This document shows positions 15,615 to 26,462 of a DNA stretch of 64,000 bases, piece by piece. The position numbers and the translations under genes are program-made. Position 1 is the first letter of the stretch. Each line of letters starts with the position of its first letter. The notes beneath the pieces were generated by a model, which had not been told where the DNA came from, ran no database searches, and saw nothing but the letters and a program-made list of their open reading frames with translations. The stretch comes from Pseudomonadota bacterium (GTDB lineage: Bacteria; Pseudomonadota; Gammaproteobacteria; Competibacterales; Competibacteraceae). The DNA is taken from assembly GCA_030917925.1 (NCBI GenBank), contig JAUPTV010000232.1:7082-71081 (forward strand), written 5' to 3'.

Positions 15615-18578
15615 ATGGCCGAATTCACCTCCTCGCCCTCGCCTGCGGTAAAGCCAGGCCTGCGTATCATCTCCTCCCTGTCCTCCATCGCCCGACCGCT
15701 CACTGAGCGCATTCGGGAGACCGGCAGTTATTCGGTAGAACGTGCCAGTAGCACCACTCACTGTTATGAACTACGGCTGCAACCCGGCATTCTGTCCAGC
15801 GATGTACAGAATTTGCTCAACAGTCTCCGCCCCTTTCAGCCGCCGATCATCCCGGACGCCGATATTTCCGGCGACATCGTGGCCGAGCTACATCTGGGCG
15901 ATCATCACCGATTTCGGCACTGGGATCTGCAAATCCATAGTGATTCACCGATCCTGACTGACGCCCTCCGCAAGGGATTAAACAGTCTACAGTTCGACAC
16001 AAAAACCCTGACGGAACACCACGGTCCCCAGGATCGTAGCCAGATTCAATTTGGCGGCGCGTCAGCCCTGGTTCGCCATGCAATTCAATGGCTGGCTGAA
16101 CCATTGGGCGTTACCTTCGCCGAGAATAAGGAGTGGGATGAACCGGACAATGACATCTATATCTATATCAAGGATCCCTCAACCCAGCCGCTGCCCCAGC
16201 GTTTCCGTGTGCTCATCCAAACCGATGCCCTGGAGGCCGCCCAAGAATTGGCGCAGCAACTACGGGAAGATGGATTCAGCGACATCGCGATTGAAACCCT
16301 GACCGCAGAAGCCGCCATCGACGCCAAATTGTTGATCGAAATGGGGCCTTTCGCTAATACCCCGTTTGCCCACCGCTTACAGGCGCGGACGCAACAGTTC
16401 ATCGCCCAGCGCGGCGTTGATCCCCTTCGCTATCCGCTCGATGTGGAAAACCACAGTGAGTCCAGCACCCGCCAGGCTCAAGTCACGTTACCACTGGCCG
16501 CGTGCATCGACCGCCGTCGTCCGGCGTATGATGGCCCCGACCTGGAACGCTTCGAAATCGCCATTCGCACCGATCAGGCCGGCCATCCCACCATTCAGAA
16601 ACTGGCCATCACCCTCCGCGCTCTGGGCTTCAAAGCCGTGAAAATTTGTAGCTCCAGTCCGAACCCGGACAACGAGGATTTGCCGGACCTGGATGCAGAC
16701 GACGACACCTTCGATATCGACGACCTGGCCGACCTGCTGCAGGACGATGACGAGACCGATCAACTGGTCGGGTTCCGCATCATCTGGAATGCGGTACAGT
16801 CTCACCCGGAAGTCGCTGACCGCATCCGCCCGATCCTGCATCAGGCAATGACCACACTCCACGCTTTGCCACGTTATCCCTTGCGGGAAGAAGAGGGGGA
16901 CGAAGACCGGGATTCGGTCAAAATCAAGATTGATTTTCCCGTTGAGGGCATTCAAAGCGGCGAACGACCAGAATCCCTGTGGTACCGCCTGCGTGTGGAT
17001 ACCCCGAACCCGGAGCGCCTGGCCCCGCTCATGGATGAACTCCACACCTGGGGATTCCTCGGCTGCCAGATCATCCAGGAACGCCGACCCGGTGGCCTGG
17101 AACCCACGATTACTTATGGTGGCGCACCCCGGGAACTGATCGACCGCATCCGCGCCAGTGTGCAGGAACAGACGGGGCTTGACCCGGAACCCGCCAAGGA
17201 ATGGGGAAGTGAGGATCGGGATATCTGGGTGCATCTGCCGGATCGGGCGCAGCAACCCACCGTCAATCGGGAAGCGGTGGCGGTCGCGATGGATCACTGG
17301 TTCCCGGAGCAACCCCCGATCCGCGACTTGATCGAGATCACTGCCAGCACCGTCCGGGTTGGCGAAATCACTCTGGAGCGCCGGCCTGGCTCTCATCATG
17401 CAATGGCCCCGTCGCGGGAGGCTTTCGTCCACTACTGCCTCGATGGGAATACCGCAGAGACGTTGCTGCATATTGCCGCCAGTGTCGTCCTCGGTGAACC
17501 CTGCCTGCTGGAAGGGGAAACCAGCACCTCCAAAACCAGCGCTATCCTCTATCTGGCGGCACTGCTCAATCAGCCGGTGATCCGCATCAATCTGAATGGC
17601 CAAACCGATACTGGCGAACTGGTCGGGCGCTATGTGCCACGGGCGCTGGAAACGGATCTGCCAATACCCACGGAAGAATTGCGCGAACTCGAAGAACTGT
17701 TAGAGCCGGAAACCCGGTTGATTCTGAACCGCGCCGCCGGGGAGCAGCGCGCCCTGACTCGCGCTGAGGTGCAGCAGGTCATGGCCAATGAACGGATGCG
17801 CAGTCATCCCTGGCGCTGGCAGGACGGTCCGGTGATTGAGGCGATCCGGCAGGGCTGGTGGGTGATTTTGGACGAACTGAATCTGGCGGAACCGCAGATT
17901 CTGGAGCGGTTGAACTCGCTGCTGGAGCGCGAGCCGACACTGGTCCTGACGGAACACGACTACCGCGTTTACGGCAATGGCGGGGAACCGATTCATGCCC
18001 ACTTCCGCATTTTCGCCACGATGAACCCGGCGGAATACGCGGGCCGTTCCATGCTCAGCCCGGCGTATCGCAACCGCTGGCAGGGGTTCCGGCAGGCGGA
18101 TAAACCCAGTGAACAGGATTATGGGCAGATGATGCGGTTCCTGGCCTCTGGCGCACAACCAGCCACCTGCCTGTTGGGGCAGGGTTATCAGGGCGGTCAG
18201 GGTCAACCCTCGCACCCAGCGCTCAATATCCCGGAATGGACGACGCGGCTCCCCTCGCTGGTACGCTTCCATGTCGCCCTGGAACGCGCCAGTGGTCAGG
18301 GGGACGGGCCAGCCCGGTTGGGCGCACGGCGGCGGGAACGCTATATCTTCACCCGGCGGGATTTGCTCAGTGTCCTGGATTATCTGGCTCGTGCCCCGGT
18401 GGTGGGTCAGACTGATCCTGATCTCGCCCTGCGCACCGCGATTCATCGTTACTACCTGAGCCGCGTCACCACTGGGGAAGATCAGCAGACGGTGTTGCAA
18501 CTCCTGGAAGCGAATGGCTTTGCGCCAGCGGGATCGCCTGAGCGGCGTATCTCGCACCCCCTGCCCAGGTCCCGGTAG
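15615..18578 (+). CDS. large protein: uncharacterised repeat-containing N-terminal region (~630 aa) + C-terminal AAA_5 ATPase (midasin/CbbQ/NorQ/CobS clade)
   Basis: 987 aa. The Walker A-like motif is LLEGETSTSKTS (17514-17537). Walker B is WWVILDELNLAEPQILERLNSLLE (D-E at 17871-17876). FRIFATMNPAEYAGRSMLSPAYRNRW is the AAA_5 sensor/arginine region. Confidence 0.75.
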   Translation: MAEFTSSPSPAVKPGLRIISSLSSIARPLTERIRETGSYSVERASSTTHCYELRLQPGILSSDVQNLLNSLRPFQPPIIPDADISGDIVAELHLGDHHRFRHWDLQIHSDSPILTDALRKGLNSLQFDTKTLTEHHGPQDRSQIQFGGASALVRHAIQWLAEPLGVTFAENKEWDEPDNDIYIYIKDPSTQPLPQRFRVLIQTDALEAAQELAQQLREDGFSDIAIETLTAEAAIDAKLLIEMGPFANTPFAHRLQARTQQFIAQRGVDPLRYPLDVENHSESSTRQAQVTLPLAACIDRRRPAYDGPDLERFEIAIRTDQAGHPTIQKLAITLRALGFKAVKICSSSPNPDNEDLPDLDADDDTFDIDDLADLLQDDDETDQLVGFRIIWNAVQSHPEVADRIRPILHQAMTTLHALPRYPLREEEGDEDRDSVKIKIDFPVEGIQSGERPESLWYRLRVDTPNPERLAPLMDELHTWGFLGCQIIQERRPGGLEPTITYGGAPRELIDRIRASVQEQTGLDPEPAKEWGSEDRDIWVHLPDRAQQPTVNREAVAVAMDHWFPEQPPIRDLIEITASTVRVGEITLERRPGSHHAMAPSREAFVHYCLDGNTAETLLHIAASVVLGEPCLLEGETSTSKTSAILYLAALLNQPVIRINLNGQTDTGELVGRYVPRALETDLPIPTEELRELEELLEPETRLILNRAAGEQRALTRAEVQQVMANERMRSHPWRWQDGPVIEAIRQGWWVILDELNLAEPQILERLNSLLEREPTLVLTEHDYRVYGNGGEPIHAHFRIFATMNPAEYAGRSMLSPAYRNRWQGFRQADKPSEQDYGQMMRFLASGAQPATCLLGQGYQGGQGQPSHPALNIPEWTTRLPSLVRFHVALERASGQGDGPARLGARRRERYIFTRRDLLSVLDYLARAPVVGQTDPDLALRTAIHRYYLSRVTTGEDQQTVLQLLEANGFAPAGSPERRISHPLPRSR

Positions 18579-18603
18579 CCACGACTTATTGAGGAGGATG
18601 ATC

Positions 18604-20478
18604 ATGCCCACAATTTCTGAATACGTCCGGCAACTGAACGCACTGGCGGCGGGGCTTTGCTACGATGCACAAATCCAGGTGGAAGCAACCGCCAGCCATG
18701 GGTGGTGCTACGATCCGGTGCGCCGGGTGATCCAGGTCAGCGCGAAAGATTTAGAACAACAAGGCCCGGTGTATTGCGCGGGCATCCTCGCCCACGAAGC
18801 TGGCCATGCCCTGATCAGCCGCTATTCGCTGTTCACGTTGCCAGAGTCGCCGCCGGTGGTCGGCCATGGTGATTTAACCCACCTGGCGTTGCTCAAACTG
18901 CTGAATGCGCTTGAAGATCCCCGGGTTGAATACTGGATGGCCCAGCGCTATCCCGGTTGTCGCGGCTGGTTTGCCGAGGTGGATGGTGCGACCGCCCTGC
19001 AACCGACGCCGCTGCCCGATGGTCTCCCGGACTTCCTGCGCTTTGGTGCGGAATGCGCCCGGGAATGGGTGTTGGACTGGCAGGCGGCCCCAGAAGCCTT
19101 CGCGGTTCCTGCACGCATCGCCGAGACGCTGGACACCACCCGTGCCGCACGCCGCCGCTATGCCGAGGCGATGCTGCCGCCGGTGACGCTGGACGCCGCT
19201 GACCTCGATCCGGCTTTGTTAGTGACCTATCCCCACCATATCTGGTCCCGGCTCAATGCCCCGGTGCGTATCCGCGCCTGGCCGAGTCGCTGGGAACAGG
19301 GTATTCAACATTATGCTTGGCAAGCCGCTGAATTTGCGCACACGGCTATCGTCCCGACCGGGTTGCGGTGGCTGGAGCGCGATGTTCAGCGCTTGGCCAC
19401 CGGTCTGCAGGCGGATCGCAACGCCTGGCGACAGGCTTTGGCAATTCGTGATCAGCGTGATTCACCCGCCGCGACCGCCTTGGTGATGACTATGCTGGCG
19501 GCGCATCCGGAACCGGGTGTAGCGCCACCGACCGGGCAGCGACTGGCGGCGGATGTGCTGTATCTCATGCTGGCGAAACTATCAAAGGAAGAAGACGATT
19601 GGGGGATAACCCCACCGCCTGCACCGCCGCCTCAAGAATTCCGGTACCAACCACGCCCGCGTGGCGCTCCGCCGCTGGAATCTGTCGATGCCTATGAGCA
19701 GGCGCGACTGCGGGTTGCCTCACAGATTGATGCCTTCACTGCCCAGGTGGAGCAGATTCTCCAGCCGTGTCGCCGGTTGCATGACCAGGCAGGTTATCCG
19801 AGCGGCTATCGTCTGGACCTGCGCCGGGTGATGGGCTTTGAAGCCGATGCTCGTTGTTACCATCAACTGTGGCGACGCAAAAATATTCCGGATCGGCGTG
19901 ATGCGGCGGTATTCCTGCTGGTTGATCTGTCCGGTTCGATGCAAGGTCCCAAGAGCGAGGCAGCGCTGCTAGGGACGGTGTTGGTGGTCGAGACCCTGCA
20001 TCGGCTGGGCGTCCCGCTGGCGGTTGCCGGCTTTCAGGATGAGCTGATTCTATTTCTGGATTTTGCGGATACGCTGGATGCGGAACGGCAACAGGCGCTG
20101 GCGTCGCTGCCGCTGGAAGTCAGTGGAACCCGCCCCGGTGGACATAACCGCGAGCGGTATAACGATGATGGTCCGTGCCTGCTGGCCGCTGCGGAACGGT
20201 TACTGGCGCAGCCTGCCAGTGATCATATTCTGGTGGCGATCAGCGATGGCCGACCGGAGGGCCGTCGCTCGAATGCACAGGATTTACATGATGCGATTGC
20301 CCGGTTGCGCGATGAACCGGGTTTAAGCCTGATCGGGGTGGGGCTGGGACCGAACACGGATCATGTGACCGAGTATTACCCTGATGCTGTGGCGGATGTG
20401 CCAATTCCTGAATTCGCGGAGCGCATTGGCGAGTTGCTGGAGCGAGTGCTGGTGGGCGGAATGGCGGAAGTGGGTTAG
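18604..20478 (+). CDS. vWA (CobT/NorD/CbbO-type) protein with N-terminal HExxH metallopeptidase-like motif
   Basis: The ATG at 18604 follows GAGGAGG (18591-18597). The motif is AGILAHEAGHALISRY (HExxH at 18793-18807), followed by LNALEDPRVE. The C-terminal vWA has MIDAS VDLSGSM (19924-19938), NDDG and ISDGRPEG motifs. Confidence 0.75.
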   Translation: MPTISEYVRQLNALAAGLCYDAQIQVEATASHGWCYDPVRRVIQVSAKDLEQQGPVYCAGILAHEAGHALISRYSLFTLPESPPVVGHGDLTHLALLKLLNALEDPRVEYWMAQRYPGCRGWFAEVDGATALQPTPLPDGLPDFLRFGAECAREWVLDWQAAPEAFAVPARIAETLDTTRAARRRYAEAMLPPVTLDAADLDPALLVTYPHHIWSRLNAPVRIRAWPSRWEQGIQHYAWQAAEFAHTAIVPTGLRWLERDVQRLATGLQADRNAWRQALAIRDQRDSPAATALVMTMLAAHPEPGVAPPTGQRLAADVLYLMLAKLSKEEDDWGITPPPAPPPQEFRYQPRPRGAPPLESVDAYEQARLRVASQIDAFTAQVEQILQPCRRLHDQAGYPSGYRLDLRRVMGFEADARCYHQLWRRKNIPDRRDAAVFLLVDLSGSMQGPKSEAALLGTVLVVETLHRLGVPLAVAGFQDELILFLDFADTLDAERQQALASLPLEVSGTRPGGHNRERYNDDGPCLLAAAERLLAQPASDHILVAISDGRPEGRRSNAQDLHDAIARLRDEPGLSLIGVGLGPNTDHVTEYYPDAVADVPIPEFAERIGELLERVLVGGMAEVG

Positions 20479-20513
20479 GCAACATTTTCAAAGTCGAAAG
20501 GAGCAATGTTCTT

Positions 20514-21494
20514 ATGGCGACTCATCCCCAGTTAATCTACAAGTACCGCATCGACACGGCCAGCATGACGGCTGAATATCCACCCCGCTGGCGGCATCCC
20601 AACAAGCAGCGAGTTTATGAAATAGCCTGTCCGCCAGGCAGTAGGCACCACGGCCAGATTCAGTTATCGCGCTGGTGTGATTTTCCGTTGCCGGGTACGC
20701 TCCCGAATACGCCGTCTGCTGTGTTCGAGATCAGCGAGAGCCTCTTTCAATACGAACTGGCCTTACCCGGAACTACGGCGTGGTATTTGAATTTTGCTCA
20801 TCATGACCTGTTTGTCGCTTACGGCAGTCCCTTATTAGCGCAAGATGAGTTACAAGTGGCCGAGCATCCGACCCTGGGATCGCTACGCGAGGCGTTGCAG
20901 GCGCGAAGCATTACGCCGCTGACCGTGGAAAACGGCAAGCCGACGCCCATGTTGATCAAAGGGATTGAACGACGGTGCTGTATTGCGACGGACGCCAATG
21001 CGGAACAGTTACGACCGCATGGACTGTATGGCAACCACTTTGCCCGCGCTTCGCTGGAGGCCGTGGAACGTGCAGTGACCCGGATTGATCCCCCGACCCG
21101 AACGAATCTGATTGCTATCGAAGCGCCGCCCGGCGGACAGGGCGCTTATACGATAGAGCAGATTTTGTACATTCTCAGCACAGCCTACAGCGGTTTTGCG
21201 GCCGCCAAGGTGGAAGCCGACGCGGATACGACGACCACGATCCATACAGGTTTCTGGGGTTGCGGCGCTTATGGCGGCAACCGTGTGCTGATGACGTTAC
21301 TGCAATTGTTGGCGGTCAACCTGGCCCAAGCGCAGCATTTGATTTTTCATAGCTTTGATGAGGCTGGGTCAAAAGTATGCCGAGAAGCGCAGACCCGGTT
21401 TAGCGAAGCGTTCGCGGGAGTGACGCAATTGTCGGCGATCATTGAGCGCATTCAGGCCATGAACTTTCAATGGGGCGTCAGCGACGGCAACTGA
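20514..21494 (+). CDS. poly(ADP-ribose) glycohydrolase (canonical PARG)-like macrodomain protein, divergent active-site loop
   Basis: 326 aa with SD AAGGAG at 20498-20503. NFAHHDLFVAYGSPLLAQDELQVAEHPTL parallels the PARG FANRFLGGGV..VQEEIRF..PEL motif. TGFWGCGAYGGNRVLMTLLQLLA parallels [23 protein letters not shown]. The human PARG sequence is from memory. Confidence 0.65.
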   Translation: MATHPQLIYKYRIDTASMTAEYPPRWRHPNKQRVYEIACPPGSRHHGQIQLSRWCDFPLPGTLPNTPSAVFEISESLFQYELALPGTTAWYLNFAHHDLFVAYGSPLLAQDELQVAEHPTLGSLREALQARSITPLTVENGKPTPMLIKGIERRCCIATDANAEQLRPHGLYGNHFARASLEAVERAVTRIDPPTRTNLIAIEAPPGGQGAYTIEQILYILSTAYSGFAAAKVEADADTTTTIHTGFWGCGAYGGNRVLMTLLQLLAVNLAQAQHLIFHSFDEAGSKVCREAQTRFSEAFAGVTQLSAIIERIQAMNFQWGVSDGN

Positions 21495-21544
21495 TGATGA
21501 TTCGTTATTTCGGACTGACCGGGTAAAAACGTTAGCCTACAGGC

Positions 21545-21967
21545 GTGGAAAAAGCGGATGATCTGCGTCATTATTGTTCAGAGCGGTTTCAGTCAGCGAG
21601 GTTTTGGCAATGCTTTGCTGATGTCCCCATTGATTTGCGCTTTGATCTGGTGTTACTGATGGGGAACGGGTTGGGGATTTTCGGCGATGAGCAGTCAACG
21701 CTGACCGGGTTACGTCAGATTCATGGCTTGCTGAATCCGGGCGGGGTTTTGGTGATGGAAACGGGCAATCCGTTTGCTCGCGGTGATTTTTTGGTTTCCC
21801 GGTTCACAATTAGCTACCGTAATCAGATCGATGGACCGTTCCCTTGGGGATATGCTTCGCGTTGGTGGTTGGAGCGAAATTTAGCGGTAACTGGTTATCA
21901 GTTAGATCAGGTCGTTCGGTCGTCCGCGCCAGGTGGATTTTTTATCGCGTGTGCATTGAAAGTGTGA
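21545..21967 (+). pseudogene. 5'-truncated class I SAM-dependent methyltransferase remnant
   Basis: A 140-aa GTG ORF retains the post-motif-I part (FDLVLLMGNGLGIF...LLNPGGVLVMETGNP). It lacks the N-terminal GxGxG SAM-binding motif. Only about 50 bp separate it from the upstream gene. Confidence 0.45.
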
Positions 21968-24953: not shown

Positions 24954-25035
24954 TGAGAATCTTAATAAAGCCTGCGGCTACTACCTAAAGCCTGATCACC
25001 TGAAAAGTCGGTCATCGTGTACTATTATAGCTCCC

Positions 25036-25412
25036 ATGGAAGCTATTAAATTTGATGAAAGCTCTCAAGAGAACTTTAAAATAAACCCGCTACCGATCCC
25101 GCCCCCCGTTCGACGCGCCATCGAGAAACTGGGCGCTGACATAGCCCTGGCCCGCCGACGCCGACGCATCTCCCAAGCGTCACTGGCCGAGCGCATGGGC
25201 GCGTCCGTATCAACCGTGAAGCGGTTGGAGAACGGCGATTTGCGAGTACCATTCACTTCATTGCCCGGGCGCTCCACGTCTTCGGCGAAATTGAACGACT
25301 CGCGAACCTTCTGGATACGGCGGAGGATGCCATTGGCCTCGCGCTCATGGATGACCAACTCCCGCAGCGTATCCGCACCCGCAAGTCAACGCCTGACGCG
25401 GGGGCGCTGTAA
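25036..25412 (+). pseudogene. XRE-family HTH (HipB-like antitoxin type), frameshifted
   Basis: The HTH ISQASLAERMGASVSTVKRLENGD is in the track frame. From about 25250 the +1 frame reads HFIARALHVFGEIERLANLLDTAEDAIGLALMDDQLPQRIRTRKSTPDAGAL* (stop 25410-25412). This is the conserved C-terminus of this family (recall). Confidence 0.6.
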
Positions 25413-25457
25413 AGTCGGTACATTGAAGCGTGCAGCAACACCTAACAGCGGGCTCGG

Positions 25458-26462
25458 CTACCCTTCTCGCTGATAACGCTCCGCCAGTTTTCGCACCCGT
25501 TCCGCGAATTCCTCACGCAACGCCACCGGTTCCAGCACCTCCACCTGTTCGCCGAACCCCAGCAGCCACCAACGCAATTGCAAGGTATCGCGCACCATCG
25601 CCGTCAACCGGTACCGACCATCGGACTGTTGTTCCAAAACCTGATCCTCGGCCAATGCCGATTCACTCAAATGAAAGGCCACGTTGCCATCGATTAGCGC
25701 CGTGAGCGGAATCCACTCGCCCCTGATCATATCGAAGGCCCCGCTCTGGATATAAGCATCCAGATCGAAGTCCGGCGGCGTCCGGCGCGGCGTATTCAGC
25801 AACTCAGCGCTCTCAAACCGATGCAAAACCAACTGAATGACGTTGTCGTATTCCTTCAAACAACACACCAGATAAATCACCTGATCCCGCACCACCAGCC
25901 CCAGCGGATTGATCTCATAACCCTTGGTCCCCCCGGTTCCGAAACGCGGCCGGTAATGGGCGTAGAATCGCTGCCCCTGCAACAAAGCATCGTAAATCAC
26001 CGCCAACACCTCGTCCCGAATCGCCGGAGCCTGCAAGCGTTGCCCCCGTGATAGAACCCGGATTTGATCCAGCCAGCCGCTCAATTCCGGCCCACTCGCG
26101 CCCTCCAGCACCGCGTCAGCATTCTCTAGATAAGGATTGAGAAACTTCAGCACGGAGGGCGGCAACAGTCGGCGCAAGTGCAGATCCACAAATTTCAGGG
26201 TCAGGGCTGTGTGCGGATCCAGTCCGGGAATGTTCAATACTCCGGCGACTTTCAGCCAACTCCAGCCAAATTGATTCTGGTTGTCCGAACACCGCAACGG
26301 AAAATAGGACTCCAATTTGATCAAATCCCGCTGGATGGTGCGTAGCGTGACCTTGTAGCCGTGATCGACCAGTTTTCGGCGCATGTCCTGAACGGTGATC
26401 CACGAGGGTTCACGAGGAATCATCCGCAACATCGTCAGATAACGAATCGTCGTGTCCATCAA
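25458..26462 (-). CDS. wHTH-WYL-WCX transcriptional regulator (BrxR/CapW-like)
   Basis: 334 aa. The N-terminus IRYLTMLRMIPREP..ITVQDMRRKLVDHGYKVTLRTIQRDLIKLE is the typical wHTH. The central region YHLVVRDQVIYLVCCL is WYL-like. Confidence 0.75.
   Translation of the reverse strand: MMDTTIRYLTMLRMIPREPSWITVQDMRRKLVDHGYKVTLRTIQRDLIKLESYFPLRCSDNQNQFGWSWLKVAGVLNIPGLDPHTALTLKFVDLHLRRLLPPSVLKFLNPYLENADAVLEGASGPELSGWLDQIRVLSRGQRLQAPAIRDEVLAVIYDALLQGQRFYAHYRPRFGTGGTKGYEINPLGLVVRDQVIYLVCCLKEYDNVIQLVLHRFESAELLNTPRRTPPDFDLDAYIQSGAFDMIRGEWIPLTALIDGNVAFHLSESALAEDQVLEQQSDGRYRLTAMVRDTLQLRWWLLGFGEQVEVLEPVALREEFAERVRKLAERYQREG

Follow-up and report, generated by a model that had tools for sequence, protein, structure and literature searches.

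A PARG-type macrodomain with a remodelled catalytic loop, a possible mobile ADP-ribose glycohydrolase, in a genome of the Competibacteraceae

Introduction

In poly(ADP-ribose) glycohydrolases (PARGs) the signature GGG-X6-8-QEE makes up the catalytic loop, and a loop of the GVFG type lying across the pocket is the diphosphate-binding loop (PMC4030884). Here we describe a gene for a PARG-like protein of 326 amino acids in which the catalytic loop has a different form. The gene lies on the forward strand at positions 20514 to 21494 of a 64,000-nucleotide stretch of DNA, referred to below as the window, from a gammaproteobacterium of the family Competibacteraceae (GenBank assembly GCA_030917925.1, contig JAUPTV010000232.1).

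In human PARG, Glu756 is the acid/base, Glu755 contacts the 2''-OH, Asn740 contacts the 3''-OH and Asp737 is structural (Tucker et al. 2012, PMC3519477). Contacts to the diphosphate come from the backbone NH of Gln754 and from Gly871, Gly873, Ala874 and Phe875, and the PARG mutants E755N and E114A are inactive (PMC3519477). It has also been concluded that true PARGs need both glutamates plus one signature glycine for activity (PMC4030884). Some bacteria carry canonical-type PARGs, and the distribution of the bacterial type is patchy and shaped by gene transfer; PARGs of both types strip 2'-O-ADP-ribose made by RhsP2 off RNA and protect Escherichia coli (Lu et al. 2025, PMC11833690).

We suggest, with a probability of roughly 0.55, that the protein of the window is an active and mobile PARG-type ADP-ribose glycohydrolase with a remodelled loop and an altered substrate, possibly an eraser of ADP-ribosylation by toxins. 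The features of the gene are the following.

20514..21494, forward strand: PARG-like macrodomain gene (P0001), 326 amino acids (open reading frame, Pfam PARG_cat_C, AlphaFold2 model, VIA)
20498..20503, forward strand: Shine-Dalgarno-like AAGGAG, 10 nucleotides 5' of the ATG (direct sequence reading)
20790..20849, forward strand: remodelled catalytic loop N93-E112 (NFAHHDLFVAYGSPLLAQDE), with F100-V101-A102 at the GGG positions (ungapped hhalign alignment against VDFANPYLGGGVFGRGFVQEE)
20841..20849, forward strand: Q110-D111-E112 (CAA GAT GAG), aligned to human Q754-E755-E756, E112 being the putative acid/base
21027..21029, forward strand: Y172, aligned to human Tyr795, the adenine "Tyr clasp" (hhalign; invariant; role of Tyr795 from PMC3519477)
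21246..21278, forward strand: diphosphate-binding loop TGFWGCGAYGG, T245-G255, aligned to human 867-877 (phmmer, hmmsearch, hhalign; loop function from PMC3519477)
21471..21491, forward strand: near-invariant C-terminal tail WGVSDGN (30-sequence alignment)

Results

The protein has the fold of canonical PARGs

The initial annotation of the window, made from the sequence alone, described a PARG-like protein, and this identity is borne out by profiles and by structure. The Pfam domain PARG_cat_C (PF05028) passes its gathering threshold (E 3.2e-13, 50.2 bits against a cut-off of 26.3), and phmmer finds PARG chains of the PDB at E 3e-6. The PARG_cat_C match covers only residues 195-283, i.e., positions 113-202 of the 207 in the profile, so the match leaves out the half of the model with the signature. 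Residues 84-135 alone find nothing in the PDB at E <= 10. The accessory domain PARG_cat_N (PF20811), which mammalian PARGs carry, has no Pfam match in the protein, PARG_cat_microb (PF10021) gives no match at E <= 1, and scans with NCBIfam and PADLOC assign no family to it.

An AlphaFold2 model, built from a 30-sequence alignment of homologues from several phyla, has a predicted local distance difference test (pLDDT) score of 92.5 and a predicted template-modelling score of 0.91. The pLDDT falls to about 71 at the C-terminal tail (21471-21491). The best Foldseek match of the model is human PARG (E 2.5e-12), and the human and mouse catalytic domains are found at about 1e-11 to 1e-12. In VIA comparisons the Z scores are 21-23 against mouse, human, rat, Tetrahymena and Drosophila PARG, 15-18 against the bacterial-type PARGs of T. 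curvata and D. radiodurans, and about 13 against macrodomains of the MacroD/YmdB type. The top superposition (Z 22.9) places residues 6-317 of the model on human residues 618-936, with 272 residues at a root mean square deviation of 2.9 A. As the score is 22.9 for the canonical type and at best 17.7 for the bacterial type, the protein is a PARG-clade macrodomain nearer to the canonical type than to the DUF2263 type, in agreement with the PARG-like identity noted initially. Judged from the predicted structure, it is a canonical-type (PF05028) macrodomain that stands alone, without PARG_cat_N. It had also been stated that canonical folds are uncommon in bacteria and that DUF2263 predominates. 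A sample of 400 other genomes of the phylum does not bear this out: PF05028 is present in 1 of them and PF10021 in 2, which makes each of the two rare in the sample.

The catalytic loop is remodelled and the diphosphate-binding loop is retained

The signature GGG-X6-8-QEE, given correctly in the initial annotation and present in the human PARG sequence (P0303) as GGG-x7-QEE, is absent from the 326-residue protein. With the default local settings of hhalign, the alignment to mammalian PARGs was confined to the C-terminal 100 residues, and the equivalence of the loops needed mact 0 or the global mode. In these extended and global alignments NFA pairs with DFA, QDE with QEE, HPxL with NPEL, Y172 with Tyr795 and WGCGAYGG with WGCGAFGG. 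The loop alignment became confident only once a bacterial canonical PARG from another genome (G596) had joined the target profile; the hhalign probability is then 99.2 % (E 8.4e-20) over the full length. This protein turned up in the Pfam scan of the 400 genomes. It has 469 amino acids (L105, 823-2232, minus strand) and a fully canonical signature, VDFANPYLGGGVFGRGFVQEE.

In the alignment with the G596 protein the loop is ungapped: N93, the codon of which starts at 20790, falls on D and H96 on N (NFAH on DFAN), F100-V101-A102 on G-G-G and Q110-D111-E112 on Q-E-E. The same alignment puts Y172 on the equivalent of Tyr795 and TGFWGCGAYGG on the phosphate loop. The distance from the FA motif to the Q is 13 residues both in the family of the window's protein and in human PARG (DFAN-x13-QEE). 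The ungapped alignment and the equal spacing therefore confirm the placement of the motifs. The motifs land where the initial annotation had put them and not elsewhere, and the best structural match has a PARG fold. The Q-D-E read at 20841-20849, within NFAHHDLFVAYGSPLLAQDELQVAEHP, is encoded by CAA GAT GAG, and the profile alignments agree that the three glycines are replaced, that the first glutamate is Asp and that the second is kept. However, the GGG had been taken for the diphosphate-binding loop, which is wrong. It belongs to the catalytic loop (PMC3519477, PMC4030884), and the diphosphate loop WGCGA(Y/F)GG is retained. The motif TGFWGCGAYGG was found as described, but its start had been given one codon late, at 21249; it spans 21246-21278 and corresponds to the diphosphate-binding pattern G-x-G-A-F-G.

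By alignment, the equivalences are thus E112 to Glu756, D111 to Glu755, N93 to Asp737, H96 to Asn740, Y172 to Tyr795 and WGCGAYGG to the phosphate loop. E112, at the position of the human acid/base glutamate, is invariant in the family. D111, at the position of the second glutamate, is invariant as well and is a conservative change. The genome of the window also encodes a bacterial-type PARG that reads NFAS and has an intact GGG-x7-QEE; since Asn occupies the same position there, N93 is no defect and is compatible with activity.

The loop is a trait of a large family

A word-indexed search finds 1904 homologues at E <= 1e-3, an exhaustive search gives 1243 representative clusters at 50 % identity, and a pattern scan of 185,579 species genomes detects the family in 294. 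Members come from Cyanobacteria, Planctomycetota, Chloroflexota, Myxococcota, Acidobacteriota, Armatimonadota, Geobacter and others, with an identity of about 50 % between phyla. A phage collection gives no match, and the single match among plasmids, to a 382-kb Treponema replicon, is distant (34 %). One member is labelled poly(ADP-ribose) glycohydrolase by NCBI. In the literature that we searched, neither this family nor its loop is described.

In the 30-sequence alignment N93, F94, A95, F100, Y103, A109, Q110, D111, E112, Q114, E117, H118 and P119 are invariant, and so are R153, R154, R167, Y172, G246, W248, G249, G251, G254, G255 and R257. Among 277 family sequences, 265 have NFA[DH]-x13-QDE, that is, QDE with the 13-residue spacing. 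GGG occurs in 16 of the 277, always shifted, as Y-G-G-G, and the phosphate loop follows the pattern TG[FY]WGCGA[YF]GG. Taken from these alignments, the rebuilt loop NFA[DH]-x13-QDE, in place of DFAN-x3-GGG-x7-QEE, is a family-wide trait and not a lesion of one gene. In the C-terminal tail W320 is invariant, and G321, D324 and G325 are conserved at >= 90 % in the 30-sequence alignment; the family ends almost invariably in F-x-WG-[VIT]-[SG]-DGN at the extreme C-terminus.

Fusions and other links to ADP-ribose

Three family members are fused to ADP_ribosyl_GH (ARH/DraG) domains (P0393, P0395 and P0396) and five to DSP-PTPases of the PTP-SAK/Tc-R-P/PTP-NADK kind (P0124, P0134, P0138, P0261 and P0394). 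Single fusions to DUF429 and to TPR repeats are also found. The gene of the ARH fusion P0393 is part of a conjugative element, which also carries TraG, TrwB, a peptidase M23 and Mrr. Bacterial-type PARGs have partners of the same kinds: the ESM Atlas holds a 268-member cluster of ARH-PARG_cat_microb fusions, and a DSP-PTPase adjoins the vWA-fused bacterial PARG in the genome of the window. A hidden Markov model of the fused DSP-PTPase finds no stand-alone copy beside the gene in 80 family loci.

The genome of the window contains two Macro and two ARH genes in addition. Its bacterial-type PARG is the C-terminus of a 599-residue open reading frame on another contig (C197; L093, 5036-7243, minus strand), with an intact signature (NFAS...GGG-x7-QEE, GAWGCGAFG) and a PF10021 score of 4e-43. 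At its N-terminus this frame has the second half of a vWA domain, and an adjoining 134-residue frame has the first half, so the vWA-PARG fusion is split by a stop or a frameshift. The DSP phosphatase that follows it (L093, 4415-4984, minus strand) is of the PTP-SAK type. The PARP catalytic domain (PF00644) is unmatched in this genome and in five other carrier genomes, in a search run without a positive control.

The gene is a single-gene cassette

The PARG-like gene is present in none of 40 relatives, 11 of them of the same genus. In the window it follows lepA-lepB-rnc-era-recO-clpB, an AAA_5 ATPase gene and an HExxH-vWA gene, in this order. The surrounding features are listed below, with the genome of a relative, G252, as the reference.

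20477..21540, forward strand: single-gene cassette of about 1.06 kb, without counterpart in the syntenic locus of G252 (blastn, junction alignment, metagenome contigs)
21545..21967, forward strand: 3' remnant of a methyltransferase gene, about 135 codons (75 % amino acid identity to residues 87-219 of the 223-residue methyltransferase of G252)
15615..18578, forward strand: AAA_5 (MoxR/dynein-type) ATPase, 987 amino acids, upstream context and not a conserved partner (Pfam E 9e-17; 70-73 % nucleotide identity to G252)
18604..20478, forward strand: vWA (CobT_C-like) protein with an N-terminal HExxH, upstream context and not a conserved partner (CobT_C E 2.2e-9; weak Zn_peptidase_2)

In blastn alignments the synteny with G252 runs at 70-73 % through the AAA_5-vWA pair and ends at 20476, at the vWA stop codon. 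It returns at 21541 (80 %, inside the methyltransferase) and again at 25020-25423 (92 %). From the breaks at 20476 and 21541 it follows that the PARG-like gene is a single-gene cassette of about 1.06 kb. As far as the comparison with G252 tells, the cassette has replaced about 1.16 kb, in which lay a PIN-like gene and codons 1-86 of the methyltransferase. An independent wastewater metagenome has identical junctions with zero differences, contigs from a cold spring and a microbial mat cease to match exactly at 20476 and 21540/21541, and one microbial-mat contig, about 89 % identical, bridges the vWA gene into the PARG-like gene. The cassette is not flanked by direct or inverted repeats of the kind expected for a transposon or an integron attC site. 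The GC content of the gene (0.563; 0.636 at third codon positions, GC3) is the same as that of its neighbours, and a promoter and terminator scan around the gene gives nothing exceeding shuffled controls.

None of the 80 family loci has an AAA_5 or vWA neighbour, nor any neighbour conserved across phyla. An all-against-all clustering of the open reading frames within 7 kb on either side of these loci reveals only kin-level synteny, in Microcoleus/Tychonema. The neighbourhoods of the family loci L001-L003, L094 and L095 have nothing in common. The large upstream proteins of L001 and L003 bear no relation to the AAA_5 and vWA proteins of the window.

The AAA_5-vWA pair itself is found in G252 (72 % identity), G014 and G171, none of which has a member of the PARG-like family. 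The pair is followed by genes for a NACHT protein and a kinase in G014, and by a DUF3368 (PIN-like) gene and the intact 223-residue methyltransferase in G252. The combination of an AAA_5 protein of about 950-1000 residues with a protein of about 620-650 residues, in which HExxH is N-terminal and a CobT-like vWA domain C-terminal, thus recurs sporadically; of about 325 other genomes searched in the class, 3 have it. Besides 15615-20478 of the window, pair loci are L009 4400-9159 and L103 8087-13093 (minus strand). The locus with the NACHT protein and Ser/Thr kinase has ThiF upstream, and downstream genes differ from locus to locus, as is typical of a defence-island-like module. In Kaur et al. 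2020, on vWA-MoxR systems, PARG is unmentioned. The longest vWA reading frame, from 18514, shares 65 nucleotides with the AAA_5 gene; the ATG at 18604, preceded by GAGGAGG and leaving a gap of 25 nucleotides behind the AAA_5 stop, is the more likely start.

Further downstream, the GC content drops to 34-37 % between 22055 and 24953, against 57 % in the window. This block encodes a ResIII/DEAD helicase (706 residues, weak PbeA-like PADLOC matches) and an overlapping WD40 protein, and is flanked by the methyltransferase remnant and by an HTH gene (25036-25473, 92 % nucleotide identity to G252). The block has the appearance of another foreign insertion, separate from the first.

Discussion

A probable glycohydrolase with a reshaped pocket, and its rivals

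To judge from the conserved residues, the protein is most likely an active glycohydrolase with a reshaped leaving-group pocket that has spread as a stand-alone gene. We favour an enzyme over a mere reader of ADP-ribose because Q110, D111, E112, Y172 and the phosphate loop are strictly invariant, and because the fusion partners ARH and DSP-PTPase are enzymes. ADP-ribose would be bound as in PARG, with the adenine under Y172 and the diphosphate on WGCGAYGG and the backbone NH of Q110, and E112 would be the acid/base in the cleavage of the 1''-O-glycosidic bond at the distal ribose. The invariant bulky residues F100 and Y103, which replace glycines and are predicted to line the leaving-group pocket, may reshape it; with such a pocket the preferred substrate would therefore probably not be long, PARP-made poly(ADP-ribose). 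A candidate is a ribose- or hydroxyl-linked ADP-ribose adduct, for example 2'-O-ADP-ribosylated RNA or short oligo-ADP-ribose. The protein could then serve as a mobile "eraser" that protects its host cell against ADP-ribosyltransferase toxins, a role already suggested for other bacterial PARGs. That the gene is mobile is suggested by its absence from all 40 relatives, the sharp breakpoints of the cassette and the fused member in a conjugative element.

Several observations weigh against this proposal. The Asp at the position of Glu755 and the bulky residues at the glycines could abolish hydrolysis, given that true PARGs need both glutamates and a signature glycine and that E755N and E114A are inactive (PMC4030884, PMC3519477). 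The literature searched holds no enzymatic data for any family member. None of the 80 loci has a cognate transferase linked to the gene, so any substrate that we name is a guess. In cyanobacteria and planctomycetes the gene is a conserved chromosomal single gene, thus a housekeeping role fits there as well as immunity does.

If hydrolysis were lost and the pocket kept, the protein could be a pseudo-PARG, a non-catalytic "reader" or sensor that binds ADP-ribose or a related nucleotide. Inactive macrodomain readers are a known class (PMC9503650), and the F-V/C-A at the GGG positions, the Asp for Glu755 and the requirements of PARGs just cited would all fit. However, E112, like Q110 and D111, does not vary across phyla, which a pure binder does not obviously need, the fusion partners are hydrolytic and not signalling output domains, and the mostly stand-alone members have no effector to regulate; we regard a reader as unlikely. 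Less probable still is an ordinary PARG that degrades endogenous PARP-made poly(ADP-ribose) and tolerates a variant signature. Such an enzyme would agree with the PARGs being the best structural and profile matches, with the retained catalytic Glu, Tyr clasp and phosphate loop, and with the NCBI name of one member. Yet the defining signature is absent, a bacterial-type PARG whose signature is intact is already encoded in the genome, and PF00644 is unmatched in the six carrier genomes searched, a weak argument as the search had no positive control.

The gene could also encode the third component, an effector or a regulator, of a three-gene system with the AAA_5 ATPase and the HExxH-vWA protein. 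The three genes are on the same strand with short gaps, no terminator-like site lies between the vWA gene and the PARG-like gene, their junction is shared by the wastewater metagenome and by the 89 %-identical microbial-mat variant, and a fusion of a vWA domain with a PARG of the bacterial type is encoded elsewhere in the same genome. However, AAA_5 or vWA neighbours occur at 0 of the 80 family loci, the three genomes G252, G014 and G171 have the pair with other downstream genes and without a family member, and the gene is a cassette that destroyed a methyltransferase. Such a system is therefore the least credible of these alternatives, and very improbable. A bolder version of the glycohydrolase proposal can also be put forward, although only as a speculation that we consider doubtful. 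The NFA[DH]-x13-QDE family might be a distinct class of ADP-ribosyl hydrolases to which the rebuilt leaving-group pocket, with the invariant F100 and Y103, gives a specificity unlike that of any characterised PARG, spread horizontally as a one-gene cassette for immunity or counter-defence against ADP-ribosyltransferase toxins. Candidate substrates would then be RNA with 2'-O- or phosphate-linked ADP-ribose, or a signalling nucleotide derived from NAD and having a ribose-ribose bond.

Both PARG types studied so far keep GGG-X6-8-QEE, whereas this family of more than 1900 proteins combines the canonical fold with a different, invariant loop. If it is active, the family would widen the chemistry of PARG-type macrodomains and provide a candidate eraser of ADP-ribosylation on nucleic acids or other non-protein targets in bacteria. 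If it is inactive, it would be a widespread bacterial reader of ADP-ribose. The family also bears on the origin of the eukaryotic PARG catalytic domain, as G596-like intermediates link the two; by its motifs, the G596 protein is a sequence intermediate between the QDE family and the eukaryotic PARGs.

Comparison with known systems

The canonical PARGs of human, mouse and Tetrahymena have the same fold of a macrodomain plus extension (Z 22.9, 272 residues), and their Glu756, Tyr795, WGCGAFGG loop and 13-residue spacing all have equivalents in the family. In contrast, the family has F-V/C-A for GGG, Asp for Glu755, Asn for Asp737 and His or Asp for Asn740, the position of Phe902 is variable, PARG_cat_N is missing and the overall identity is only 17-18 %.

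The nearest relative with a true signature is the bacterial canonical PARG of G596, according to the full-length hhalign match (99.2 %, E 8.4e-20). It shares with the family a G-x-PTP-x2-I-x-G motif and a YG-x-x-F element that are absent in mammals. It differs in having VDFANPYLGGGVFGRGFVQEE with GGG-x7-QEE, GCGAFGNN in the phosphate loop and an extra N-terminus of about 130 residues.

The bacterial-type PARGs (PF10021; T. curvata 3SIG, D. radiodurans 5ZDB) resemble the family in their PARG-clade fold, in the Asn of N-F-A, in their partners (ARH fusions and DSP-PTPase neighbours) and in their patchy distribution. However, they keep GGG-x6-8-QEE and score lower structurally, and PF10021 is unmatched in the protein described here. 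Macrodomains of the MacroD/YmdB type share the core fold (Z about 13) and a glycine-rich phosphate loop, but they are much smaller and have neither the Q-x-E catalytic loop of PARGs nor the N-terminal extension.

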